This document shows, one piece after another, positions 5,604 to 31,289 of a stretch of DNA of 64,000 nt. Location: contig CAZSJW010000001.1 of the NCBI GenBank assembly GCA_964607285.1, positions 2,514 through 66,513 on the forward strand. Direction: 5' to 3'. The position numbers were made by a program, and so were the translations under genes. Source of the stretch: an uncultured Pseudomonadales bacterium. GTDB taxonomy: Bacteria > Patescibacteriota > Microgenomatia > UBA1400 > PJMF01. Positions within the stretch are counted from its first letter, which is position 1. Every line of letters begins with the position of its first letter. The notes beneath the pieces were generated by a model. It ran no database searches, was not told where the DNA came from, and was given only the letters and a program-made list of their open reading frames with translations.

Positions 5604-6209
5604 ATGGCACGTTATACAGGACCAAAAAATAGATTAGCTCGCAAAGTGGGTGAAGACTTAGGACTTAAGTCAAACGCGCTTAAAGTTACGCGTCGTCTTA
5701 CTGTCGGCCCTGGTCAACATGGAGCAGCGAATCGCCGCAAGGTTTCTGACTACGGTGTGCAGCTTAAAGAAAAGCAAAAACTAAAGTACTTATATGGAAT
5801 CTTGGAGAAACAGCTTCGTCGTTTGTACGACAAGGCTACAAGTAATCCTACTGCAACTGGTGCAGCTCTCTTGAGTTTGCTTGAGAGAAGACTAGATAAT
5901 GTAGTGTATCGTCTTGGTTGGGCACCAACTCGTGCCTCTGCTAGACAGCTTGTCAACCACGGTCATGTGTTGGTAAATGGCAAGAAACTCGACATTTCTT
6001 CGTATCGAGTGCAGGTCAATGATGTCGTTTCACTCAAAGACTCTGGTTCAAAGATACCAGCAGTAGCAGACAGAATTAAAGATGAGTCTGCCTTACCAGG
6101 TTGGTTGGAGCGAAAGCACACGGTTGGAAAGATAAGTCGTTTACCTGAGAGAACTGACGTAACTGAAGTAATAACAGAACAATTAGTAGTAGAGTATTAC
6201 AGTCGATAG
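5604..6209 (+). CDS. rpsD: 30S ribosomal protein S4
   Basis: MARYTGPKNRLARKVGEDLGLKS...; S4 domain; 201 aa. Confidence 0.93.
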   Translation: MARYTGPKNRLARKVGEDLGLKSNALKVTRRLTVGPGQHGAANRRKVSDYGVQLKEKQKLKYLYGILEKQLRRLYDKATSNPTATGAALLSLLERRLDNVVYRLGWAPTRASARQLVNHGHVLVNGKKLDISSYRVQVNDVVSLKDSGSKIPAVADRIKDESALPGWLERKHTVGKISRLPERTDVTEVITEQLVVEYYSR

Positions 6210-15416: not shown

Positions 15417-15800
15417 CTAGAGATACTTGTATCGCCACAATAAAGCGAGGCTGGCACCGAGTGTGTCGTAGCATATGTCACGGGCTGTGGCTGTCCTGCC
15501 AGGTACAAGTGATTGATGGTACTCATCTGAGACAGCGTATACCATGGTCAGTAAAAATGGAATGAGCCATGCAGCGTGTGTTGTAGCATTTGGGTTTGTG
15601 AGGCGATGTGCTCTATGCAGCAAAAGGTATAAGACAGCATACACACCTACATGAGCCATTTTCTTAAAGAAAAACTCATAATTGGATGCTTGAAATGACG
15701 GTAAGGCTTGCTGGGAGGAGAGGAAAAAAATCAATCCTGCCCAACAAACAGGAGGTGCGTAGGCGATAGCCCATTGAAATGTTTGTTGTGCTAGTTTCAT
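15417..15800 (-). CDS. VanZ-like family membrane protein
   Basis: 127 aa with 4 TM segments and a DEYHQSLVPGR motif typical of the VanZ family. Confidence 0.7.
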   Translation of the reverse strand: MKLAQQTFQWAIAYAPPVCWAGLIFFLSSQQALPSFQASNYEFFFKKMAHVGVYAVLYLLLHRAHRLTNPNATTHAAWLIPFLLTMVYAVSDEYHQSLVPGRTATARDICYDTLGASLALLWRYKYL

Positions 15801-16969
15801 GTCGGGTACTTTGGAGGCTGTGTATATAGTACAGTTGCACCACCCATCAGCAAAAATCCACTACCCAGTATAGCACCCAGAACTGCACCTTGTGGGATAT
15901 TCCTTTGTCTATATTCTAGAGTTCGCATAGGTTCTGTATGTGCAGAGGTGGTACTTTCTGTGTACTGTTTGAAAAGTATGGGTAGTGCAAGTGGAGGCTT
16001 TTTTTTCTTTGCAGGGGAAAGTAAGGTTCCAGGTGTTGCGGTTGGTGAAGCTTCTATCGTATGAGTGGAAAGTGAGGGGCTGGGGGAGGGAACTGTTGGG
16101 CTTGCAGCTAGAATTGTAGTTTCTGTCTGCCATTCACCTTCGATCAGTAGCAATGGTTCTCCAATGGTGCATGACGTGTACTTCGCTGAGGCAAGCACGA
16201 CGCCTGAACTAGACAGCACGAATACAGTGTCTCCAGTATTATTGAGCATATCTGCAGTCCACTTGATTGAGCTTTCGGCAAGTGGTGGAAGTGACCCTGT
16301 AGTTTGTCTTTGGTTTTGTTGTTCATCTGTGATACGTATTGTGCTGAGATCAAGTATGGTTGTTCCTGTGTTGGTGATGGTGACGTACTCATCTGTATCT
16401 GTTGCAGGGCAAGGGAAAAGCTCGGATATAGAGATTTTTGCTGGTGACGCCGTAGGTGACGGTGTGGGTAGTAGTATAGGACTTGCACTGGGACTTGATG
16501 TCGGTTGCGGTGTTGGTTCACTCAGCATACTTAGGTATGTGCCAGGACTTGGTTCGCTGATTTGCCAAGTGTTTACTGTTCTGGCCCAACTTTTGGCTTG
16601 TTCACTTGCTGAGTAGCTAAATGAATCTGTGATGTCTATTGCAGGTGTGCGCAAGGTGACCCCATCTGCTGCGTTATTCAATTTTGGGTTTTCAAAGGTG
16701 AATACTTTTGTTTCTCCAGGGTTGAGTGTTATATGCAAGGTGAGTAGCAAACTGGGCGAGCTCAGTTCATCCCAGAGTTCCCAATTGGTTAGGTCTATTG
16801 CTTCTGCATCGGGGTTATGGAGCTCGATCCATTCAGGCTCACCACTTGCTGGGTTTGGATGTAGTTCAGTAATGAGGACAGAGGAAAAAACGGGTTTCGC
16901 TCCTGCTACCAAAGCCCAAGTGTAGAACAGGCAAGTCAACATGAAAAACCGAGATACAAACATCTTCAT
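15797..16969 (-). CDS. Surface protein with two lamin-tail domains, P/T/S-rich linkers and a C-terminal TM anchor
   Basis: N-terminal signal peptide. ITELHPNPASGEPEWIELHNPDAEAIDLTNWEL is the LTD signature, followed by a second LTD (ISELFPCPATDTDEYVTITN...). Linkers PTPQPTSSPSASP and PTVPSPSPS; terminal hydrophobic helix. 4-nt overlap with the downstream vanZ-like gene. Confidence 0.68.
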   Translation of the reverse strand: MKMFVSRFFMLTCLFYTWALVAGAKPVFSSVLITELHPNPASGEPEWIELHNPDAEAIDLTNWELWDELSSPSLLLTLHITLNPGETKVFTFENPKLNNAADGVTLRTPAIDITDSFSYSASEQAKSWARTVNTWQISEPSPGTYLSMLSEPTPQPTSSPSASPILLPTPSPTASPAKISISELFPCPATDTDEYVTITNTGTTILDLSTIRITDEQQNQRQTTGSLPPLAESSIKWTADMLNNTGDTVFVLSSSGVVLASAKYTSCTIGEPLLLIEGEWQTETTILAASPTVPSPSPSLSTHTIEASPTATPGTLLSPAKKKKPPLALPILFKQYTESTTSAHTEPMRTLEYRQRNIPQGAVLGAILGSGFLLMGGATVLYTQPPKYPT

Positions 16970-17021
16970 GTTGTATCACTTGAAACCTACATAACCCGTA
17001 GCTTTTTATGAGCAGAGTGAA

Positions 17022-20000
17022 CTAGGTTGCAGGTGAATTACTCTTAGGTGTTTTTTGTCTTTGTAGTAGCCCTGTGGCAACTAAAAAACTGCAGACTAAC
17101 AGTATCCAGATACCAATAAAGAGTAGTATTTGTGCATCGTGAATAACTATAATTGTAGTTACCCCCTCAGGTATGAACCATCCCTGTGCCCAATTATTGA
17201 CTGTAACTTCTGCTTTGATCTGCTGATGCTTGAGTACGCTTTGGAGAGCACTCCATACAGAAGTACCATCCCAGACATAGGCTCGCCAGCCAGGGTTCCT
17301 TGACTCATTGAGTGACATCACTCCATTTTCACCGTTCAGTTCAACCCAGTATGTACCAGTTCCCCAGCGTTTTATGGTGTTTACTGCCAGATTAGTGCTA
17401 TATAGCTGAGTATTTTTTGGGATAAGGGCAACTTGTGATAACCATTCAAACGAGGCAGGCATGGGTTGTATGGAGATCGCGTTCAACTCGTTTTGTGCTA
17501 GTTCTGTTCCGTACGATCTATTTTCAAAGTGCAGACTGTATTGAGAGATAGCCTGGTTTTTCCAATCAGGCACAGTTACCCACATATCAAACTCTTTGGA
17601 AGTCATAACGTGCTCAAAATCAACGCGGTTAGTGGCTAAGTTCTCCAAGTAGGCACGAATGTTTCGACCTGCATGATTTTTACCTGTAATGCGCAGCAGT
17701 GCAGGCGTTTGATTATTTGCGTGTGGAATGATGAAGCTATCACAGCCCGTTGCGCCACCACTGTTTTCATACAGCACAGAGTTGGCAGTCATAGTTTTAT
17801 TGCGAGAACCCCTATCAAACTCTGTACATGATGCAAACTTTGTTATGTGCAGTGAATCTAGTAAGTTACTGCTAGCAATGGTTGTAAGCACTAAAGTGGG
17901 TTGGTCTTGATCAAGGCGAACACTGGTGGTGGGGAGTTGTAGTTCATTCCAGATTGCAGAAGGTATAGTGGCAGTGTGTAAGTCACTGGACTCAATCAGG
18001 ATATGGGTAGCAGAGGGAGTTGCGATAGCTGTATCGAAGTAGTTGATGGTGATTTCCTCACCGTAGCGCAGCCCAGTTAGCGACACCGCTTGCTCTGAGT
18101 TTGCTTTAAGTTCTATCACTTGCCCGTTTAATTCAATAGTAAGTGCCTCAGGTGAAACAGCAAGTGGAACAGCTACGGATGGGAGTGTCGGGAACTCGAT
18201 ACTGGTATCTCCAGCTAAGACGCGCAGTGGTGTACTGAATGCTATCTTGAGCTCGGCATCTGAGTAAGCCAGTTTTGCAGTTTGGCTAAGATATTGGCCT
18301 TGAGTCAGCGGTGGGAAAGTGAGTTCGTACTGGCCTGAAAGCGTTTCGTGTGCCACAAACGAAGGCCCATTGGATGTGTTTGTGATAGGAATACTCTCTT
18401 GCTGCAAGTTAGCAAAAGGGTAGATGGTGTGTGGGATAGTCTCATCTGCCGTAATGGTATCAGTAGTGAGGAGAGTGCTGGGATCAAATCTAGAGTACAG
18501 AGAGTTTGCAGTGGTGTACGTAGCAGATTGCACCGCACTGACGGGTGCCACGGCAACAGATTTGTTTTGGTACAGGGAAATGCTTCCCAGCGTTCCCACT
18601 TTTTCAACACCAGGTAGCATAGCCAACATGGCTTGCAGTTCTGCCACAAAGAACACCTCTTTATTCGTGTTTGGCAAATATACTGAATCGTCCAGTAGTA
18701 CATGTGCAATGTTGTATTTCTGTAGCAATCTATCTAACTGATCTACATCCTGGTTGTACACCGCTCGCTGCATTTCCAATCGGTAGGTTTCATTAAAGGG
18801 ACTCCAGACGTCAAACGAACGCCCGAGAATAGGCTGATGCATGCCGTACCAGAGAAACCCAGAGCCTGTGTACCCTCTGTGTTCCATCCAACTGTGCATA
18901 TCCCAGCCTGTATAGGTGTAGATGGGAAACACAGCAACTCTCCCATATCTGGGCCGCTTGGCAAAGTACTCCATGACCTCTGTATACTCCTCAGGCAACT
19001 TGACTCGTGCTCCTTGATACAGGAAGTGGCCCTGCATACTTGGCCAGGATAACCAAAGTACGCAGAGTACGCACACTATGCCCGTTGTGTTGCGAGCTCG
19101 CGCTATTGTCTGTTGGGTAAGTCGCCTGGAGAAAAGTTCAAACAGCCCCGATATGCCTACCGCTGCCCAGAGTGATAGAAAAAGACTAGCAGACATAGAA
19201 AGCTTAGAGTAGGGAATTCTAAAGGCTTGATTAAGAATGGGTACAAAGCGAATGGCATCTGAAACATAGGTGAGAGGCCAAGTATCTGTGAGAAGTAGCA
19301 CGAAGGTACAAACAGCCGCGATTGCCAGCCCTGTGGCGGTGGCACTTCTCTTGCTGAGTCGAACTGCTCCCCACCCAACTCCCCATAGGCTGAGCAGGGC
19401 TATACTGTACCCAATCATGCGCACTACGGGTGACTCGAGGTGCTGCTTCCATGGAGTTAAAATTAATTCAAGAGGGCTGCCACTGTCAAATCTAGCTTGG
19501 TCATATGAGTCAAATAAGAACCCTTCAAGCAGAGACACCTCGGCTAAGTTGCCAGTAGCTCTTGTGGTGTAAATAAACTCTGTGGTGGTAATTTGATTAA
19601 GCTTTGCAAACAAGTAGTGATCACCTTGGGTGGCGGTGAAATAGGCAACGGGAGCCAGCCAGTAGGCGTTAGTGGCAAGTACTATCAATACCGCTAAAAG
19701 GCTGGTACGTACGGTCTCCCATCGTTTGGGGTGTATGAAGAACGCTGTACTGGCAGCACAACCTAAAAATAGCCCGTACGTGATAAAGAGTGGCGGAATA
19801 AAGCCAATAATGGAAAGGTAAAGATTGAGTAGGAAGAACACCACGAGTTTCCTGGTGGTTCGGTTTTCCAGTAATCCTACGAAACTCCAGAGTACCCATG
19901 GGAGCACTCCGTACATGACCGCAAAGGGCTCGAGTGCCACGTAAAATGTTTGAACAGTGCCTGGATGAAGTAAGTACAGCAGCGCGCCGATTGTCGCGGC

Positions 20001-20408
20001 CCAGGATTTAGTGTTCTGTTTGAGATTCAGCTGTTCTAGTGTTTGCGCAGTGAGGACGTATGCTCCAAGCACTCCGACTAGCAGCATGAGGTACATAAAT
20101 GCGTAGCGCAGGTACTGCAAAGGTATAAATAAACCAAGCACAGCTTGTGTTACAGCATGAAATAGTTGCGCAGAGTACCCATGCCCGCCAAGTAGTCCCA
20201 GTCCTTGGAAGCTTTGCCAGGCACCAGTTATTGAACGCTCAATGTTGAGTGCAGGGTTAAACTCACTGGCCATAGTATCCCAGCTGAGAAACCAGGTACC
20301 AAGTTCAGTATTAGTTAGGACAATTGCCAACCAGGCAACAAACACTACAACCACGCCCAAGTGTTTACTGAGCAAAGACTGGAATGAGCTTTTTAAGCCG
20401 TGCCACAT
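17022..20408 (-). CDS. Large polytopic membrane protein (1128 aa), possible GT-C superfamily glycosyltransferase (AftD/DUF3367-like) with a big extracytoplasmic domain
   Basis: More than 10 N-terminal TM helices. The first loop (WFLSWDT...NPALNIERSITGAWQ...GHGYSAQLFH) resembles the AftD-type loop. Roughly 600-aa soluble C-terminal region and a final TM helix. The family call is weak. Confidence 0.45.
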   Translation of the reverse strand: MWHGLKSSFQSLLSKHLGVVVVFVAWLAIVLTNTELGTWFLSWDTMASEFNPALNIERSITGAWQSFQGLGLLGGHGYSAQLFHAVTQAVLGLFIPLQYLRYAFMYLMLLVGVLGAYVLTAQTLEQLNLKQNTKSWAATIGALLYLLHPGTVQTFYVALEPFAVMYGVLPWVLWSFVGLLENRTTRKLVVFFLLNLYLSIIGFIPPLFITYGLFLGCAASTAFFIHPKRWETVRTSLLAVLIVLATNAYWLAPVAYFTATQGDHYLFAKLNQITTTEFIYTTRATGNLAEVSLLEGFLFDSYDQARFDSGSPLELILTPWKQHLESPVVRMIGYSIALLSLWGVGWGAVRLSKRSATATGLAIAAVCTFVLLLTDTWPLTYVSDAIRFVPILNQAFRIPYSKLSMSASLFLSLWAAVGISGLFELFSRRLTQQTIARARNTTGIVCVLCVLWLSWPSMQGHFLYQGARVKLPEEYTEVMEYFAKRPRYGRVAVFPIYTYTGWDMHSWMEHRGYTGSGFLWYGMHQPILGRSFDVWSPFNETYRLEMQRAVYNQDVDQLDRLLQKYNIAHVLLDDSVYLPNTNKEVFFVAELQAMLAMLPGVEKVGTLGSISLYQNKSVAVAPVSAVQSATYTTANSLYSRFDPSTLLTTDTITADETIPHTIYPFANLQQESIPITNTSNGPSFVAHETLSGQYELTFPPLTQGQYLSQTAKLAYSDAELKIAFSTPLRVLAGDTSIEFPTLPSVAVPLAVSPEALTIELNGQVIELKANSEQAVSLTGLRYGEEITINYFDTAIATPSATHILIESSDLHTATIPSAIWNELQLPTTSVRLDQDQPTLVLTTIASSNLLDSLHITKFASCTEFDRGSRNKTMTANSVLYENSGGATGCDSFIIPHANNQTPALLRITGKNHAGRNIRAYLENLATNRVDFEHVMTSKEFDMWVTVPDWKNQAISQYSLHFENRSYGTELAQNELNAISIQPMPASFEWLSQVALIPKNTQLYSTNLAVNTIKRWGTGTYWVELNGENGVMSLNESRNPGWRAYVWDGTSVWSALQSVLKHQQIKAEVTVNNWAQGWFIPEGVTTIIVIHDAQILLFIGIWILLVCSFLVATGLLQRQKTPKSNSPAT

Positions 20409-21720
20409 ACTGCCATTCTAGAGTGTTTCTGAGCGGGTTGGAAGTGTAGATGGTAGTGAGCTCTTCTTGCAGGCGCACTTCTGGTGATCGTTGCACAGCG
20501 AGGTCTTTAGCAAGGGCAGCAATTTTTCTGCGTACAGAAACTTTACCCAGTAGTCTGAGGTGCTCTACGAACGAGCGTTTGTTTCGCTTAAAGACCAACT
20601 TGTCTGTAGAGATTGCGTGTTTGGCTAGCAGCTCTTGGATATCACCACTCTGTAAATATGCACCTAAGTCTTTGGAAAGTATGAAGGGTACGCCGTAGGC
20701 AATACCTTCACCCCAGGATGCAGATGCACCAAGGATGCCACGGTATGGTAGTACTGCCATATCTGCAACAGCAAAGTAACGGCTGAGCTCTGCATCAGGA
20801 ATGAAGCCAGTCAGACGAATGTTTTTAGAGTGCACTGCAGCCTGACTGAGTGAGCGGTAGAACTGCTCATAGTGGGTTTTTCCCGTTTGGGATGGGGCTT
20901 TTCCCCCTGCCAAAATAAGATGCAGTTCTGCATCCCCCAACTGATCTGCAGCAATATCTCGAACTGCATTCACCAGCCAATCAACACCTTTGTATCGAGT
21001 CATGAAGCCGAAACAGACTAAGACTAAATCATTTGGTTTGAAACCCATTCTGGCTCTCCAGTAGCGGCGGCCCTTTAGATTTTTTGGGTACACCCAGAGA
21101 GGTGATACAACTAATTTTTGTTGTGCTACATATGGGGAGAGACGTTGGCGCATGCTGTCATCTAGACAAATAATTTGATCAAGACACATACCGAGTACTC
21201 GGTAGTACCAAGGCAAAAGTTTGGTTAGTGCCTGCATAGTTTTGCCAGTCTGCGAACGACCCAAGTGGCGAGCTAGAAAGCCAAAATTTGTGATCACATT
21301 ATGTGCAAAGTAACTGAGGAAGTATCCTGCACTTCTCAGAGCAAGATAAAAAGGAAGGGCAGCGGCCATCTGCAGCATGTTTCCACTGGTGTAAAACTCA
21401 GAGTGGATATGTAAATGTTTTGCTTTATTGAATAGTCTCAATGCTTGGGAGATCTGAAGGTACATTTTAGGAGACGCTGAAAAAACTGGCAGCACTAAGA
21501 CTCTGCCTCGCTCCAGAAGCTGTGGTTTGCGGTCATATTCCTGCTGAACTAAAACCACAAATCGCTGTTTTGTGCTGCGAGCGACAGTGCCAACAGTTTG
21601 CTGGGTGTACTTTGCTACACCATGATATGAGTGGGCAATGTTCTGGTAGGGGTACTTGGAAAGCACCAAGATCGTATCTGGCGAGTTGAATCGCGAAATG
21701 ATCTGTTTTGATAGTTTCAT
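20365..21720 (-). CDS. Glycosyltransferase family 4 (GT-B fold)
   Basis: C-terminal region LPYRGILGASASWGEGIAYGVPFILSKDLGA matches the GT4 E-x7-E region. 451 aa; overlaps the upstream gene by 44 nt. Confidence 0.65.
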   Translation of the reverse strand: MKLSKQIISRFNSPDTILVLSKYPYQNIAHSYHGVAKYTQQTVGTVARSTKQRFVVLVQQEYDRKPQLLERGRVLVLPVFSASPKMYLQISQALRLFNKAKHLHIHSEFYTSGNMLQMAAALPFYLALRSAGYFLSYFAHNVITNFGFLARHLGRSQTGKTMQALTKLLPWYYRVLGMCLDQIICLDDSMRQRLSPYVAQQKLVVSPLWVYPKNLKGRRYWRARMGFKPNDLVLVCFGFMTRYKGVDWLVNAVRDIAADQLGDAELHLILAGGKAPSQTGKTHYEQFYRSLSQAAVHSKNIRLTGFIPDAELSRYFAVADMAVLPYRGILGASASWGEGIAYGVPFILSKDLGAYLQSGDIQELLAKHAISTDKLVFKRNKRSFVEHLRLLGKVSVRRKIAALAKDLAVQRSPEVRLQEELTTIYTSNPLRNTLEWQYVARLKKLIPVFAQ

Positions 21721-21782: not shown

Positions 21783-23432
21783 TCAGTCGTCTAACGAATA
21801 TGCTGCGAAAACATCTGTATAGACTGGTGATAGGTTGCCTTTAGGGTCGACAATCCAGAAGCCTCTACATTGATTTGCCTCTGGTTCAGGAACGGAGCAT
21901 TCGTTATCGAGGAGCTGCCAGTAGAAAACAAATGCCGCATGTGCTGCAAGAGCAGCAGCTGTGGCCTCTCTAACTAACTTTTTTGCGTCCTCGGGTGTGT
22001 AAGAACCTGGTCCATGAGGGACGCCTAGTTCACTGATAAACACCTTGGAGTGAGGAAAAGTTACTTGCAAGTACTCGAATGCACGGCTGAAGGCAGTTAA
22101 TCCCGCCTCAAGAATGGTGTCATAAGCAGAGTATCCGATATAGTCTGGTGTAAAGTCGAGTTGTGGAATAACTGCAGTGGCTGCTCTAACCTTCTCATAC
22201 CGAGCATCTTGCACACGGTTCACCTCAACTGAATGAGTAAGTTGTAACTGGGTGTTTGGATTCTGTGACTTGGCATCAGCGATAGCACGATGAATTGTGT
22301 TGAGATACTTGATGGCATTAGCGACTGCAAGCTCTGAAGCATCAAGCTCTCTTGCTGCCCAACCACCCTGAGCCTCAAGCATGTGCCAATCAAGTTCGTT
22401 AGGCGTCTGGATAATTATTTCTTTATCTAGATGACCATAGTTTCTTAGTAAATGTGAGACGAAGTCAAAAAACTCATTGTATGTGGACTGTAATTGCTGT
22501 TCAGTCAGGGGCTGATGAGAAATATTCCAAGCTGTGGCTGATTCTGGTAGTCCTGCTTCGGTAGTCACTACTAGGTGTTTTAGTTGGGGATGTTGGAATA
22601 CCCAGCCGAACTCAGAGGACTGAGCTACATCGAGAATAGTAACGCGCTCTGGGTCACTTGGACAAAAGCCAGTGAATTGATACACCCCATGTGGGTAGCG
22701 CGTCTTGTCAGGATGAGTGCCACAAATTACTCTGGGAGAAATTTCAACCTCTAGGGAAGAAAAGCCAAGCTGTGTAGCCATTTCTACCCCATCTGCGAGA
22801 AACTCTCTGCCAGTTTGTGGGTAAAGACCTGCAATGTGTGATACACCGATGCGCTCGTCTAGGTGCACAAGCTGTGGCTGAACTTCGCGAGTAAACTCGG
22901 CATCTGGTGAGTTGGTAGTTGGTGTTGCTTCGGGATCATGTGCGGTTGCAGGAGTGACTTGAGGTATGGGGGCACCTTCCTTCTTGCGCAGGCAAGCACT
23001 CAGTCCTAATAGCAGCATGCTAACGGTACAGGCAGATGTTTGTGTCAGGAAACGGCGTCTGGAGCGAGCCAGGAGCTTTTTGCGTTCTAAGATTTTTTGT
23101 TGCAGGGTAAGGCGATGTTGAATGGTGAGCAACATACTCCGTTCTACGGGTGTGTACTTTTTGGTTGCTTGGTTTGCAGAGTAAAGCTGCTCTTGAAGGT
23201 AAGATTGCAACAGTTCAAGTACCGAATAGTATTGATCTTTGTTAGCACTCGCGAGCCCGTCGGGAGTGATTGGCAAAAGTTGCTTGGCGCAGTTTATGAC
23301 ATCGGGAAATGAGAGCTTGCCGCTGGAAAGTTTTTGTAAGCTTTGGGGTAAGGTGTTGTTTTTAGCCGTTTCGGGGTGAGGCAGCTCTCGAGGCTGTTGG
23401 ACTGATTGTTCGGTATTTGTATAAAGAACCAT
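21783..23432 (-). CDS. Clan GH-A (GH5-like) glycoside hydrolase, membrane-anchored or TAT lipoprotein
   Basis: IIIQTPNELDWH is consistent with the NEP-type acid/base strand. ISELGV is consistent with the nucleophile strand. SRRRFLTQTSACTVSMLLLGLSAC resembles a twin-arginine signal plus lipobox after a ~100-aa N-terminal region. An alternative start is possible near 23135. Confidence 0.55.
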   Translation of the reverse strand: MVLYTNTEQSVQQPRELPHPETAKNNTLPQSLQKLSSGKLSFPDVINCAKQLLPITPDGLASANKDQYYSVLELLQSYLQEQLYSANQATKKYTPVERSMLLTIQHRLTLQQKILERKKLLARSRRRFLTQTSACTVSMLLLGLSACLRKKEGAPIPQVTPATAHDPEATPTTNSPDAEFTREVQPQLVHLDERIGVSHIAGLYPQTGREFLADGVEMATQLGFSSLEVEISPRVICGTHPDKTRYPHGVYQFTGFCPSDPERVTILDVAQSSEFGWVFQHPQLKHLVVTTEAGLPESATAWNISHQPLTEQQLQSTYNEFFDFVSHLLRNYGHLDKEIIIQTPNELDWHMLEAQGGWAARELDASELAVANAIKYLNTIHRAIADAKSQNPNTQLQLTHSVEVNRVQDARYEKVRAATAVIPQLDFTPDYIGYSAYDTILEAGLTAFSRAFEYLQVTFPHSKVFISELGVPHGPGSYTPEDAKKLVREATAAALAAHAAFVFYWQLLDNECSVPEPEANQCRGFWIVDPKGNLSPVYTDVFAAYSLDD

Positions 23433-23510
23433 GGTGTGGCTGATTATACGGTAAGGTAGTGGGTGTTTGCTGGGTTAGTTTGGTGCATGGAAGAGACTGA
23501 CTTGATACAA

Positions 23511-23540
23511 AAAGCCCCTCTTGGGGGAGGGGCTTTTCGA
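23511..23540 (-). terminator. Rho-independent terminator (bidirectional-type hairpin) downstream of the repeat-protein gene
   Basis: AAAAGCCCCTC-TTGGGG-GAGGGGCTTTT hairpin flanked by A- and T-runs. Confidence 0.6.
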
Positions 23541-23562
23541 TGATTGTTGGTTTTGGGTGGGG

Positions 23563-24132
23563 TTAGGAGGACGGCTCGAACCAGAAGGTGGCACCTGTGT
23601 CCCACCCTCTCGCATAGTAGTCGTTGTAAGCCAGTTGCCAGCTAGGGTGAGTGTTTAGCTCACCTCCAACATCCACAACATGGTTTCCGCTGACATTCGG
23701 ACACGGATTTTCGTTCGGAATTTCTGAGTGAGGAGGCACTGGCCAAGCCACGCCACCTGTGCAGTATCCCGCGGGGGGTTGCATGGGGCCTGAAAACAGT
23801 ATCGGGAGAAAAATCACATTTGTGCCTCCCTGCATAGGCTCGAACCAGAAGGTGGCACCTGTGTCCCACCCTCTCGCATAGTAGTCGTTGTAAGCCAGTT
23901 GCCAGCTAGGGTGAGTGTTTAGCTCACCTCCAACATCCACAACATGGTTTCCGCTGACATTCGGACACGGATTTTCGTTCGGAATTTCTGAGTGAGGAGG
24001 CACTGGCCAAGCCACGCCACCTGTGCAGTATCCCGCGGGGGGGGTCACTGTTCCGCCCTGCCCATGCACAACAAGGGCAGTCAGCAGTGAAAAGAAAAAA
24101 ACAAGCATAGTCATTGTCAACTTGCGTTCCAT
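23563..24132 (-). CDS. Secreted Cys-rich protein made of two identical 88-aa repeats
   Basis: Signal peptide MERKLTMTMLVFFFSLLTALVVHG, then PPAGYCTGGVAWPVPPHSEIPNENPCPNVSGNHVVDVGGELNTHPSWQLAYNDYYARGWDTGATFWFEP twice. GC-richer than the neighbouring genes. Confidence 0.7.
   Translation of the reverse strand: MERKLTMTMLVFFFSLLTALVVHGQGGTVTPPAGYCTGGVAWPVPPHSEIPNENPCPNVSGNHVVDVGGELNTHPSWQLAYNDYYARGWDTGATFWFEPMQGGTNVIFLPILFSGPMQPPAGYCTGGVAWPVPPHSEIPNENPCPNVSGNHVVDVGGELNTHPSWQLAYNDYYARGWDTGATFWFEPSS
23573..24044. repeat. Perfect tandem duplication: two copies of ~206 bp at 264-bp period
   Basis: 23573-23778 is identical to 23837-24042. The copies differ only in a homopolymer G-run (6 G at 23773-23778 versus 8 G at 24037-24044). 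Confidence 0.9.
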
Positions 24133-24527
24133 TCGTATCTACCTCCACTTACACCAGCCATCCCAATCCCCGAAGTGGGGCGGGTAGGCGTGGCGATCGA
24201 GCACTTTTCCAGAGAAAAGAACCCCATCACCACGCCCGAGGCGTGCGTTTGCGGGAGGTGCAACCATAGGAACGAGCCATAGGCAGCACAACTAATTCGA
24301 GTCGCAATATACCACTTGTTAACGAACAATCATCGAGAACTGGAGCGGAATGGTTCAGCAGGCAGCAATTGCCTGGAAACAGTCACGCGCCAGGGTGCCA
24401 ATCACTTGGCAGCGTGTATTATACCCCTATAGACTTATAACGTCAATATTATAGGTTCATACATGCAGTTTGACTCCAGGCTAAATATGATGTAAAATAA
24501 CCAAATAAGTATTGAAATGGAGATTAT

Positions 24528-24791
24528 ATGAAAATTGAAACTATGTCCACACCACTCGCTGCTTTATTTGTAGCTGTAGCTATCGCTGCAACCGCAGGTT
24601 TAGCTTACACTGCTGCTCAACAGCAGATGCGAAACCAAGCTGTGGAGAGTTGTTTCCGCGCTGGTATGGTGGAGTCTGTCCGCGAAGGCGAAGGAGAGAC
24701 TAAAGAGCTAAAAATCACTGAGCCAGTTCGTGAAATCTACACATACTGCTTGCAAGACAAGGGGTATACCTCTGTCATTCAGGGTAAGTAG
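24528..24791 (+). CDS. Hypothetical small exported or membrane protein
   Basis: 87 aa with an N-terminal hydrophobic segment; GGAG RBS 7 nt upstream. Confidence 0.45.
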   Translation: MKIETMSTPLAALFVAVAIAATAGLAYTAAQQQMRNQAVESCFRAGMVESVREGEGETKELKITEPVREIYTYCLQDKGYTSVIQGK

Positions 24792-25708
24792 GTATCCCTG
24801 GGATCTAAAGTCGGATCAGTTTTTTCTAACACCACACTGAAGGGTGATGTCCCGCTGTAGTGTTTTGCGTCCATCATGGCGTATGCTTCTAGTTCGTACC
24901 CAGTAGTTAGATCCATAATTTGCTCGTACAGGGTATTAAATTTGCCTCGGAGGTATCTTAGTGGTAAAGCTAGAACCAAACTGATTGAGATTGCCCCTAA
25001 AGCCGAGGGGTTTGTAAGTGCTTGCTCAGCGATGGCAAAACCTGAGATAAATGCAGCTCCCGTGAAAGCCGCAAAGGTTTTGAGACGAAACTCTAAAATT
25101 CTACGATGAGCCTGTTTCATTTCTTTTGTTGGCCCTTTGACCCTTTGTATTAGATGTTGCCGTTCATGTCTCCACATTGCATCGAGAAGTTGTCGGAAAT
25201 ATTGGGGTTTATATTCCTCTGGTAAGTTTCTAGGAAAAAATAGTCGGTGTGTATGAGGCGTCCCTTTGGTAAACAGTGAATACAGAGATAGAATGTCAAA
25301 CTGCATTTTTGGTTCTGTTAGTAGCAACCGGTGATTCAATTTATCAACTTGATCTGCTGCAGACATTAGTATTGGTACGTCCAACTTTAGAATCTGGTTT
25401 GCGTGTTCAGTATCATTGGACATCACACCAGCTTTAATGCTGCGCACTAGCTCGGATTGATTTGTTTGGCTGCTAATGATCGGTACAAAGGTGTCCGAAA
25501 TCCGTTCCGCTTCAGCCTCTGATAGACCTTGTCGAATTGCTTCTGCTTTGAGGTCTGCTCTCATGCGTGCAGTATCGATTCTGATAATTGCATGTGCTTC
25601 GGAAATCTGTATACCAATCTCGTATACTCGATCCTTCAGGAGCTCAGTCACTTGCTTTTCAGAGATGTGTCGTTGTGTTGAGCCCTCACTTGGATTTTTT
25701 TCTGACAT
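24779..25708 (-). CDS. Hypothetical protein (309 aa) with a C-terminal TM pair; intact copy of a tandem paralog family
   Basis: Contains LDAMWRHERQHL and ELEAYAMMDAKHYSGTSPF segments shared with the downstream frameshifted copy. No family recognised. Confidence 0.55.
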   Translation of the reverse strand: MSEKNPSEGSTQRHISEKQVTELLKDRVYEIGIQISEAHAIIRIDTARMRADLKAEAIRQGLSEAEAERISDTFVPIISSQTNQSELVRSIKAGVMSNDTEHANQILKLDVPILMSAADQVDKLNHRLLLTEPKMQFDILSLYSLFTKGTPHTHRLFFPRNLPEEYKPQYFRQLLDAMWRHERQHLIQRVKGPTKEMKQAHRRILEFRLKTFAAFTGAAFISGFAIAEQALTNPSALGAISISLVLALPLRYLRGKFNTLYEQIMDLTTGYELEAYAMMDAKHYSGTSPFSVVLEKTDPTLDPRDTYLP

Positions 25709-25747: not shown

Positions 25748-26724
25748 TTAACTAAAGTATTTTTTGTGAGGATCCATGTTCGGATCAGCTTTTTCAAGCC
25801 GAACAGTGAATGGTGAGTTGGCTCTGTGGTGTTCTGCAGTCATCATGGCGTAGGCCTCAATTTCTTCGTTACTTAGCAAGTTTAGCGCTCTGTCACTAAT
25901 CATACTCACAAGTATGCTAACTGGCATAGCTAGTCCAATTGAGACGTTTACACTTGGAGGTAGCTGAAGATTCAGCAAAGACAATCCAGTAGAAGCCCAA
26001 GAAAGAAACAAAGCACCTTTAAAGACGGAGCGCATTAGGTTAGCAATTTTACGATGTCTAATATGTGAATCTGTGATTCCCTTATCCTTCTCTGGCTTTA
26101 AGTATTGCACTAAATGCTCACGCTCGTGTCGCCACATCGCATCCAGTGCTTGCTTGATGTACTGAGTTTTCATTTCTGGAGGCAGCGTATCTTTGGGAAA
26201 AACCACACGAACAGAACTTAGTGCATGTTTGCTAAATAAGGAGTGTATGCTGATGATATCAGGACTTACTTTAGCCGAGCGTAGTTGAAATCGATGATTG
26301 AAACGAGTCTCTTTTCAAATGTTTCGAGTATCCCTTCCCAGTCAAATCCGAGCATTGAGCCAAGCTCAGCAACTTTTCTTACGAATGTCCCTTGGTCTTG
26401 CTCATTTTTTCCAGGTCTTCGTCTTTGATTAAAAAGTACAATATTGTCTCTACCAATTATTGGGAAAAAAAGTTTTGCTGCTAGTTCTGCCCTGGGCTCA
26501 GAAACCCCTTGCTGTATAGCATACTCGTAGAGATCCTGGCGCATCTTACCTGTATCTACTGAAATAGTTGCGATGTCATCATCAAAGGGTTGGATAAGCT
26601 CATACACTTGATCTTCACCCAGTTCCAGTAGTTCCTCATCTGTGATTTCCTGAGGTCTGACAGGAGCGATATCTAAAGTATTTGGATGTAAAGTATCTGT
26701 AGAATGTGTCTCATCGTAGTTCAT
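25748..26724 (-). pseudogene. Frameshifted tandem paralog of the 24779-25708 gene (split into two 152-aa ORFs)
   Basis: ORF 26266-26724 aligns to the N-terminal half of the 309-aa paralog. ORF 25748-26206 aligns to its C-terminal half. The downstream frame stays open upstream of its GTG start and reads ...DIISIHSLFSK..., matching DILSLYSLFTK in the intact copy. This indicates a frameshift near 26265-26300. Confidence 0.55.
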
Positions 26725-29950: not shown

Positions 29951-30604
29951 CTACGGTGAGGAAAACAAAGCAATCTTGGTCACGAATTCCTGAAACCAGG
30001 TAGCACAAAGTACATTTCGCGACAAAGCTTGTTCAGCGTATGTCACACAATAACTTGTGCGTTGCTCTGATGTCAGGAGTTGCTCGGCTCGCTGGAATGC
30101 CCATGCGAGGTGTTCTGGCGTGATATAGGACTGGTGCGGGTTCAATCCCGCAGTAGCCAATCCATTCACACTTTCACACTGCACAACGAGGGGGTGACCC
30201 AGGGCCACGTTCCCCTCGTCTAATTTCCAAACGCTTCCGTTGACCCATCCCGTTCGGTCGGCCATAGCATCAACTTCTGCGCGTCCGTTGGCTTGGCACG
30301 CGCTGTGTGCATTTGCTGGGTTGGTCGAGCCGCCCCAGGGGCCGATAACCAGGACAGTGGCGTTTTCCAGGCATTGCCAATTGTCCTTGGTAGATGTGGT
30401 TACACCCGCTCCAGACTCGTTTGTACCCTGGTAAACCAGGGCGTCTTGACCTGTACAAACGCGTTCGGTAAACACCCCAGGTGTTCCTGGGGCGGGGTCA
30501 GGAGACCCCGATTGCGCCTGTGCGGCTGGCGCGACCGGTCCAAGCAGGACAACGGCTAAAATGGCACCCAAAATGAGGCCAAGGACGATTTGATAGCGCT
30601 TCAT
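29951..30604 (-). CDS. Secreted Cys-containing hypothetical protein (GC-rich gene)
   Basis: Start ATG 30604 has AAGGAG 8 nt upstream. Signal peptide MKRYQIVLGLILGAILAVVLLGPVAPAAQA. G/A/P-rich with 8 Cys. The track's longer ORF extends upstream with no support. Confidence 0.6.
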   Translation of the reverse strand: MKRYQIVLGLILGAILAVVLLGPVAPAAQAQSGSPDPAPGTPGVFTERVCTGQDALVYQGTNESGAGVTTSTKDNWQCLENATVLVIGPWGGSTNPANAHSACQANGRAEVDAMADRTGWVNGSVWKLDEGNVALGHPLVVQCESVNGLATAGLNPHQSYITPEHLAWAFQRAEQLLTSEQRTSYCVTYAEQALSRNVLCATWFQEFVTKIALFSSP

Positions 30605-31289
30605 CGTTTTAAACTCCTTACTAGCGCAAACGTTAAATGACCTTTTCGTAGTCATCACGCCTATGCCTCTTTGCCATTTCTGGCAAGTCTGACATAGGAC
30701 CCTGCGCCCAAAGCACCTCGCTCGCTGCAACAAACTTGCAGACGGAACAAAGCCTTTAGCCACACGATCCTATGCCAAACATAGAGACAGTACGCTTTGA
30801 GGAGCACTGTATTTGGTAGCCGATGTGGTTTCCCACATCTTATTCCCACTTTTTAAAGAACAATCACTGGGCAAGGGTTGATGGTAGTCGAACGGCACAC
30901 GAGGTGACGCTCGAGCAGCTATCTAGCTTGCTCTTATCAGCAGTTATGCGAACAATCATTTGGCAGCAATTGCCAATGGTTTTTCGCGGTGAACCACTGG
31001 TATCAAGAAGAAACTTCTTGACACGTGTTTCAGTCCAAACTGGGGGGAGAGAAAGAAAGGGTGGACGGAAACAACTGTCAATAAGTCTGAGAGTCATGTC
31101 GTGCGTGGCCGCAACGTAAGTGCCATCAGGGGTGAAATTGATTCGAGCGATGGCAGAGCTCGAAGCTACATAAGGCATACGTATTACTAGATAGTACTAT
31201 AGCACAATTGGGCAGTGGTGTCAATGTTATGGGACTTTATCTTGTAGAGAATTTTTGTTAGAAAGAGAGTACTTTCTTCGGACACATAC

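Follow-up and report, generated by a model that had tools for sequence, protein, structure and literature searches.

Identical modules in a predicted secreted-protein gene of a candidate phyla radiation bacterium, probably homogenized by recent gene conversion

Introduction

The tandem-repeat surface proteins of Gram-positive cocci, which include alpha C and Rib of Streptococcus agalactiae, Esp of Enterococcus, and Bap and SasG of Staphylococcus, have repeats whose DNA sequences are kept the same. Here, we describe a gene with some of the same properties, which encodes a 189-amino-acid (aa) protein with two identical modules. It lies in a 64,000-nucleotide (nt) stretch of DNA from an uncultured, ultra-small bacterium (contig CAZSJW010000001.1, positions 2,514 to 66,513), which we refer to as the window. 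Like the proteins of the cocci, its product is predicted to be secreted, and its repeats are in frame and identical at the nucleotide level. The paralogous repeats within the gene are closer to each other than to orthologous ones (concerted evolution), and perfect direct repeats permit recA-type loss or gain of a unit in frame. There are also differences. The window gene has only two copies, with a unique linker that carries a conserved motif between them, and the protein has no LPXTG or other recognized anchor. Its domain is outside the described families (no Pfam entry and no PDB fold), and its host belongs to the candidate phyla radiation (CPR). Concerted evolution of exported-protein repeats is already well known. 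The parts that deserve more attention are the domain family, its neighborhood, and the leader of its mRNA.

Homopolymeric-tract contingency genes provide a second comparison. Examples are pilC, hmbR, and hpuA of Neisseria and the poly-G genes of Campylobacter. The window gene resembles them in that its product is presumably exported, its 5′ region contains a G/C tract of 8, and frameshifts would truncate the product. However, no tract-length polymorphism was seen between two consensus assemblies of the species or among four samples of its ortholog. Furthermore, such tracts are not enriched in the window, and the one in this gene is explained by Pro-Pro codons of a conserved motif in a gene that is rich in G+C at third codon positions (GC3). 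The third comparison is with clusters of the GT4 plus DUF6541 type, which are associated with assembly of envelope glycans or glycoproteins. A GT4-family glycosyltransferase and a polytopic protein of ~1100 aa are near the module gene, but PF20176 (DUF6541) is matched by one homolog of that protein and not by the 1128-aa protein of the window itself.

For most genes of CPR bacteria, or Patescibacteria, no function is known. The surface proteins of these bacteria are presumed to attach them to a host.

Results

Two identical 206-nt repeats lie within one gene

A repeat finder detected two direct repeats of 206 nt each that are 100% identical and start 264 nt apart (Table 1). A perfect match of this length is impossible by chance alone. 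A sequence-only reading of this region had described two identical segments of ~206 bp, which our search bears out, but it had also called them a perfect 264-bp tandem duplication. That description has to be revised, because the repeated part makes up just 206 of the 264 nt. The remaining 58 nt form a unique spacer between the copies, with no second copy, and the layout is 206 + 58 + 206 nt, giving a periodic stretch of 470 nt and not 528 nt. Tandem Repeats Finder made no call here, which is uninformative because there are fewer than two copies of the period.

The repeats are inside a 189-aa open reading frame (ORF; 23563-24132, minus strand), and their period is in frame (264 nt, or 88 codons). 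A Shine-Dalgarno (SD) sequence, a signal-like N terminus, and a terminator mark this ORF as a real, independently expressed gene. Residues 4 to 25 are hydrophobic, and the N termini of all relatives of the protein (see below) are comparable. This signal-like segment and the pattern in the family suggest that the protein is secreted or at the cell surface. The sequence-only reading had proposed a secreted, Cys-rich protein with eight Cys. Secretion agrees with our analysis, but the translation contains four Cys, two in each module, and the protein is not Cys-rich. The same reading had the gene as GC-richer than its surroundings, and it is: its GC content is 0.542 (0.443 in the whole window), with a GC3 of 0.553 (0.38 to 0.48 in neighboring genes).

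The module defines a rare family

The 189-aa protein had no match in Pfam or NCBIfam. A word-indexed search of 5.8 billion proteins returned only the protein itself, and nothing was returned when an alignment of 47 modules was used as the query. There is no encoding contig on record for the exact protein, and a scan of genome contigs with the single protein found no relative. When 1.84 billion cluster representatives were scanned exhaustively with HMMER, there were 13 matches, 12 of them true relatives. The other one (P0015, 1758 aa) was rejected as a false positive, not being recovered by the module profile. When this profile was iterated over the matches, the true relatives were found to have two to seven copies of a module of ~62 to 71 aa.

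The module consensus is xPxGFCxGxxxWxxxxxxxxPxxPxCxxGxxxVDVxGxxxxxxxxxxAxxxLxxxGxxGTxWFxP. Its two invariant or nearly invariant Cys probably form one disulfide. None of the 47 modules matched Pfam, and the best match in a sequence profile search of the PDB with the module had an E value of 0.38. AlphaFold2 modeled a single module with a pLDDT of 97.7 and a pTM of 0.85, and the predicted fold is a small beta-beta-beta-alpha-beta domain. Foldseek found no significant match to this fold in the PDB (best E values of 0.3 to 1.3), and the best match among the viral models of BFVD had an E value of 0.73. The 69-residue module is a rare family without prior description.

The modules are more alike within the gene than between orthologs

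One of the relatives, P0005, is an ortholog. It is also 189 aa long, it is 40% identical to the window protein, and its layout likewise consists of a signal peptide, a module, a linker with an FLP-type motif, and a second module. The linker has 18 aa in P0005 and 19 aa in the window protein. The P0005 locus (L001) is syntenic with the window, containing an 86-aa gene, the module gene, a GT4 gene, a gene of ~310 aa, a gene of 1118 aa, and a lamin-tail-domain gene. The shared layout means that the two-module architecture is older than the divergence between these species. However, the two modules of P0005 are not identical to each other. They share 61% of their residues and 58% of their nucleotides, and they have 26 synonymous codon differences. 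Within-protein module identity ranges from 27 to 68% in all relatives and reaches 100% only in the window protein.

The window module is 42 to 45% identical to either P0005 module, compared with 61% between the two P0005 modules. Therefore, in both proteins the repeats are more alike within the gene than they are with their positional equivalents in the ortholog, which is the pattern of concerted evolution. The P0014/P0016 pair, which served as a control, has the opposite pattern. Positional orthology is kept, with 60% identity between the first modules and 62% between the second, compared with 38 to 41% within each protein.

The linker between the modules is itself a family feature. Of the 12 true relatives, 11 have exactly one FLP-type linker, and P0004 has none. 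The motif is VIFLPIL in the window protein, and examples among the relatives are LYLPLV, IYLPLM, LFLPLM, IFLPLI, TFLPAI, and LWLPII. In an alignment of 12 module-linker-module segments of the family, P110 is invariant and L109 is nearly so. This family-wide conservation means that the 58-nt spacer is not junction debris. The linker has a pLDDT below 50 in a two-module model. Our literature searches on FLP/YLPLV-type motifs returned nothing relevant, and it is only a guess that the motif might be where the protein is processed or recognized, or what is left of an internal signal peptide after a gene fusion.

Gene conversion explains the identity better than duplication

The sequence-only reading had offered either a very recent duplication or gene conversion as the origin of the identical segments. 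In the first case, a single-module gene would recently have doubled a 264-bp unit, and the spacer would be junction sequence. The perfect identity of the copies and their in-frame period of 264 nt (88 codons) are compatible with this, and the start of the spacer (MQGGTNV) is, by eye, faintly like the sequence that precedes module 1 (GQGGTVT). However, a 264-nt unit predicts 528 periodic nt, whereas 470 were found and the spacer is single copy. The spacer motif, including its invariant Pro, is kept in 12 segments of the family. Also, a syntenic ortholog of the same length has the same module-linker-module order, and all 12 relatives have at least two modules. We consider a new tandem duplication to be very unlikely. 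Gene conversion is favored because the relatives already have two modules, and those modules have diverged.

Therefore, of the two origins proposed by the sequence-only reading, we retain gene conversion. The gene encodes what appears to be a signal peptide, a 69-aa module, a 19-aa FLP linker, and a second 69-aa module, and the modules have probably been homogenized by very recent intragenic gene conversion. The identical tract is flanked by older sequence that was not homogenized, which is the signal-peptide region and the linker with its invariant Pro. An old two-module gene would have undergone a very recent nonreciprocal intragenic recombination event (gene conversion) in which one whole module, at least 206 nt, was copied over the other. 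The signal-peptide region and the conserved linker would have been left untouched. The resulting perfect repeats, 88 codons apart, would then be a substrate for in-frame module loss or gain. By calculation, recombination between the 206-nt repeats deletes or adds exactly 88 codons, and the products are in frame and 101 aa or 277 aa long.

An independent assembly ends where an exact repeat predicts

The window species was found in one genome and one Logan run only. The Logan contig (L005, from SRR12762285) carries the exact 309-aa protein that is a neighbor of the module gene in the window, and it spans the promoter, leader, start codon, and first poly-C tract. It stops at window position 24013, which is exactly 30 nt into the repeat (k − 1, for a k of 31). 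This is where a de Bruijn graph contig would end because the 30-mer of the repeat has two upstream contexts in the reads, and it supports a real exact repeat.

These data bear on whether the repeat is an assembly artifact, with two similar but nonidentical modules, or just one module, having been misthreaded or collapsed into two identical copies. The source is a metagenome-assembled genome (MAG), an exact repeat of 206 nt is longer than common k-mer sizes, and the copy number (two versus more) was inferred by the assembler. However, L005 comes from a different assembler and ends exactly where a repeat with two contexts predicts. Furthermore, the two-module architecture agrees with the ortholog and the family, and the ORF is intact and in frame. 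We regard an artifact as most improbable.

The poly-C tracts are by-products of conserved Pro-Pro codons

Two poly-C tracts are located at the starts of the modules, with eight C (C8) at module 1 and six (C6) at module 2 (Table 1). The sequence-only reading had reported both lengths and the Thr-Pro-Pro coding of C8, all of which are correct. It had gone on to read the gene as a possible contingency locus, in which the C8 tract after the signal peptide slips when the DNA is replicated, so that the secreted protein is turned on or off. We assessed this with criteria for homopolymeric-tract contingency genes (PMC5084427 and PMC2831843). By the Neisseria criteria, G/C tracts of fewer than seven are weak candidates for phase variation, and a tract of eight is long enough (PMC5084427). 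The tract is at codons 30 to 32 of a gene for a secreted protein, and changes of −1, +1, −2, and +2 (C7, C9, C6, and C10) are calculated to truncate the product to 68 to 71 aa. Consecutive CCC codons are also unusual for Pro-Pro in this genome. In 38 background ORFs, Pro is encoded by CCC 18% of the time, and CCCCCC is used in none of 20 Pro-Pro pairs. The ortholog likewise has a C7 tract at a module-start Pro-Pro site.

However, other findings are against a switch. With a first-order Markov model, 0.29 G/C runs of at least eight are expected in the 64 kb and one was observed, and 25% of simulations have at least one (P = 0.25). There are two runs of at least seven, compared with 1.4 expected. 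Therefore, long tracts are not overrepresented in the window relative to its composition. The tract is C8 in both the window and L005, two consensus assemblies, and L005 passes through it without a branch, with C8 as the majority allele. The C7 and C6 tracts of the ortholog are in frame in consensus assemblies from four different samples. The position of the long tract also shifts. It is at module 1 in the window and at module 2 in the ortholog, which has C5 at module 1, and the more distant relatives that we examined have C5 or less. This shift is explained by composition (a GC3-rich gene and a conserved Pro-Pro motif) and is not how a conserved switch behaves. Finally, the difference between C8 and C6 does not come from slippage but from the preceding codon, which is ACC (Thr) at module 1 and CAA (Gln) at module 2. 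The six C that they share are the CCC CCC within the repeat. We conclude that the tracts are by-products of Pro-Pro codons at the conserved module start together with the codon that precedes them, and we consider a contingency locus to be unlikely. Literature searches on phase variation in Patescibacteria returned nothing relevant.

The module gene is in a conserved cluster of a CPR bacterium

The window opens with a ribosomal-protein/secY/rpoA operon. Its SecY is 91% and 84% identical to those of two wastewater or freshwater MAGs (CAZBMX01 and CAZBTU010000001.1, respectively) and ~70% identical to those of "Candidatus Pacebacteria," Microgenomates, and Patescibacteria MAGs (NCBI phylum Minisyncoccota). 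Therefore, the host is a CPR bacterium of the Microgenomates-"Pacebacteria" group. SRP286056, which is the source of a related MAG, is from Polish wastewater and river water.

We compared the sequence that flanks the module gene at six loci (the window, L001, L042, L043, L044, and L045). In all six, the module gene is beside some or all of three other genes, which encode a GT4 glycosyltransferase, a membrane protein of ~1060 to 1130 aa, and a small membrane protein of 72 to 87 aa (Table 1). GT4 identity between loci is 31 to 79%. The homolog of the 1128-aa protein in L045 matches PF20176 (DUF6541), but the 1128-aa protein itself reached no Pfam threshold, and no paper found in our literature searches mentions DUF6541. 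The 87-aa protein had just one homolog cluster in the collections that we searched. By homology, a function can be predicted for the GT4 protein alone. One locus, L042, has three tandem module paralogs. One of these combines a Pro/Thr-rich stalk with a C-terminal transmembrane (TM) segment and a tail of RRRRRR, features that point to surface display. We propose that the module protein is a component, partner, or substrate of a system for cell-envelope glycosylation or assembly.

The GC content of the module gene is 8 to 20 points above that of its flanks in all six loci (window 23563-24132, L001 954-1523, L042 440-976, L043 503-1207, L044 458-1384, and L045 6001-7689), and GC3 is also elevated in the five loci for which it was computed. 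In L001, for example, GC3 is 0.72 in the module gene and 0.36 to 0.51 around it. Candidate causes are amino acid composition with codon bias, GC-biased gene conversion, and selection linked to expression. Horizontal transfer is an unlikely cause, with the same excess at all six loci of the family, including diverged orthologs.

Some other proteins are encoded in or near the cluster. A lamin-tail-domain protein is also part of it, both in the window (where the cluster covers 15797-21720 and 24528-24791) and in L001. The 309-aa protein (24779-25708, minus strand) contains the HExxH-like motif HERQH as well as a C-terminal TM segment. It is kept beside the cluster in L001, with 27% identity. Two adjacent 152-aa ORFs (25748-26206 and 26266-26724, minus strand) match its C- and N-terminal halves with 39 to 40% identity. 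They look like a split or duplicated paralog of the 309-aa protein, which is possibly a membrane metalloprotease. A 549-aa orphan protein (21783-23432, minus strand), encoded between the module gene and the GT4 gene, is absent from L001. By eye, its NELDW and ISELG motifs are reminiscent of clan GH-A glycoside hydrolases, but it had no Pfam or PDB sequence match.

A structured leader might be a new cis-regulatory RNA

The intergenic region upstream of the module gene is 395 nt long and contains a near-consensus promoter and a leader of ~280 nt. Between the window and L001, conservation of the leader far exceeds that of the coding sequence, and its invariant blocks reach 33 nt. A 2-nt indel shifts every ORF in the leader, yet conservation at the nucleotide level carries on, and the leader is therefore noncoding. 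Folding z-scores of the two leaders are −4.3 and −4.0. RNAalifold predicted 70 pairs, 6 of which have compensatory double changes and none of which is broken. One example is a 5′ GNRA hairpin, UGCCAA-GUGA-UUGGCA in one leader and GGCUUA-GAAA-UAGGCC in the other. An anti-SD segment, ACCUCC, pairs with the SD sequence in each single-sequence fold. At the gathering threshold, Rfam identified one tRNA only in the window, and nothing credible was found in 23450-24550 at an E value of ≤5. From its conservation and predicted folding, the leader is a candidate for a new cis-regulatory RNA.

The invariant block of the leader includes a 21-nt box and the 5′ arm of an inverted repeat, the other arm of which is in the 3′ untranslated region (UTR) just before the terminator. 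The box is identical in L001 to L004 and L041. The two 19-nt arms are 89% complementary, a feature that L001 retains, and they pair in both the minimum free energy and the centroid folds of the whole 907-nt mRNA (z = −4.8). If these models are right, the inverted repeat could bring the 5′ and 3′ ends of the mRNA together, or it could be a protein-binding box that the two ends share. We also considered DNA inversion between the arms as a switch, which is unlikely. There is no adjacent recombinase (the nearest is at 52116-53831), all five assemblies that contain the leader and gene of the ortholog agree in orientation, and a second leader contains the box unpaired. In searchable collections, these leader elements are carried by only two species, which makes the covariation behind an RNA hypothesis thin, and a metagenome scan with a 22-nt leader block found only another copy of the L001 species.

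That second leader is elsewhere in the window. The 21-nt box, TGATTGTTCKTTAAMAAGTGG, occurs again at 30846-30866, which makes two occurrences in the window, compared with 0.01 expected. It is in a GC-rich (0.53) locus (29951-31235, minus strand) that has a similar promoter (TAACATTGAC...), a leader of ~590 nt containing the box, and a near-identical terminator. The gene in this locus (29951-30604, minus strand) encodes a secreted protein of 217 aa that contains several Cys and matches no family. Upstream of cluster genes in the distant relatives L042 (at ~40-60) and L045 (at ~5880-5900), there is a motif, CAGCTCTTTAACAATC, with the core AACAATC (reverse complement GATTGTT), which is common to the window leader box and the 3′ UTR arm. 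This type of motif may be a common regulatory site.

Far from the module gene, a large serine recombinase (571 aa, with Resolvase and Recombinase domains) abuts tRNA-Pro(GGG) at window positions 52097-53831. This junction may mark one end of an integrated element.

Table 1. Features of the module gene and its conserved neighbors (window coordinates)
Feature	Position	Strand	Evidence or remarks
Sigma-70-like promoter, TTGACG-17 nt-TATAAT	24418..24446	-	11 of 12 consensus positions; TTGACT-17-TATAAT kept in ortholog locus L001
Predicted structured 5′ leader, ~280 nt, including anti-SD segment ACCUCC	24133..24411	-	L001 counterpart at 696-953
Invariant leader block: 21-nt box TGATTGTTCGTTAACAAGTGG and 5′ inverted-repeat arm TTCTCGATGATTGTTCGTT (24321-24339)	24312..24339	-	Repeat finder
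SD sequence, GGAGG, 9 nt 5′ of ATG	24142..24146	-	Sequence reading
Codons 1-30: signal-peptide-like N terminus MERKLTMTMLVFFFSLLTALVVHG, then QGGTVT	24043..24132	-	Translation
C8 tract in mRNA (ACC CCC CCC, Thr-Pro-Pro); G8 on plus strand	24037..24044	-	Also C8 in L005
Repeat copy 1 = module 1, residues 31-99	23837..24042	-	100% identical to copy 2; boundaries by jackhmmer
Linker MQGGTNVIFLPILFSGPMQ with family-conserved (Y/F)(L/F)P motif, in unique 58-nt spacer	23779..23836	-	Family alignment
C6 tract (CAA CCC CCC, Gln-Pro-Pro) at module 2 start; G6 on plus strand	23773..23778	-	Sequence reading
Repeat copy 2 = module 2, residues 119-187	23573..23778	-	Repeat finder; jackhmmer
3′ UTR arm AACCAACAATCATCGAAAA, just before terminator	23534..23552	-	Complementary to leader arm; kept in place in L001
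Intrinsic terminator hairpin GCCCCTC-CCCCAA-GAGGGGC, then T run	23505..23533	-	Sequence reading; kept in L001
Divergent gene for 87-aa small membrane protein	24528..24791	+	72% identical to the 86-aa protein of L001 (L001_86); 72-aa homologs in L044 and L045
GT4-family glycosyltransferase	20365..21720	-	Pfam Glyco_trans_1_4 and Glycos_transf_1; homologs beside module gene in L001, L042, L044, and L045
1128-aa polytopic membrane protein	17022..20408	-	At least 7 N-terminal TM-like segments and one C-terminal; homologs in L001, L042, L043, and L045

Discussion

Gene conversion within an old two-module gene is the explanation that we favor for the identical repeats, but some points weigh against it. 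Both the copy number and the perfect identity come from consensus assemblies. The databases contain just two species of the subclade, which is too few to show when or in which direction conversion took place. Independent reduplication in each lineage, with the linker retained, is also formally conceivable. Finally, secretion is deduced from a hydrophobic segment and the family pattern, and among the proteins of the cluster only GT4 has a function to which homology points.

If the two modules were homogenized by conversion, the repeats that it left may have consequences for the protein. A change in the number of modules is probably a likelier source of variation than slippage of the C tract, and it fits the range of two to seven modules in the family.

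The immediate claim about the repeat is an ordinary one, but the locus is a clean case of concerted evolution within a CPR gene for a putative secreted protein. The domain family, its GT4/DUF6541 neighborhood, and the structured leader are worth following up. The family is compact, confidently modeled, and without a Pfam entry or PDB counterpart. Its genetic link to GT4 and a DUF6541-like protein suggests what the proteins of such clusters act on or with, and the conserved leader, with its predicted pairing between the 5′ and 3′ UTRs, could be a new cis-regulatory RNA.

A more far-reaching view, which we offer tentatively and think rather doubtful, is that these elements together make up a new, tightly regulated surface-protein system of CPR bacteria. 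In such a system, a disulfide-stabilized domain of ~65 aa would serve a GT4/DUF6541-like glycosylation machine. A new riboswitch-like leader would sequester the SD sequence and pair with the 3′ UTR, thereby closing the mRNA, and the protein would be diversified by recurrent intragenic gene conversion, by module gain and loss, and possibly by slippage of the C tract. If this were true, it would bear on how episymbiotic CPR cells vary their surface.

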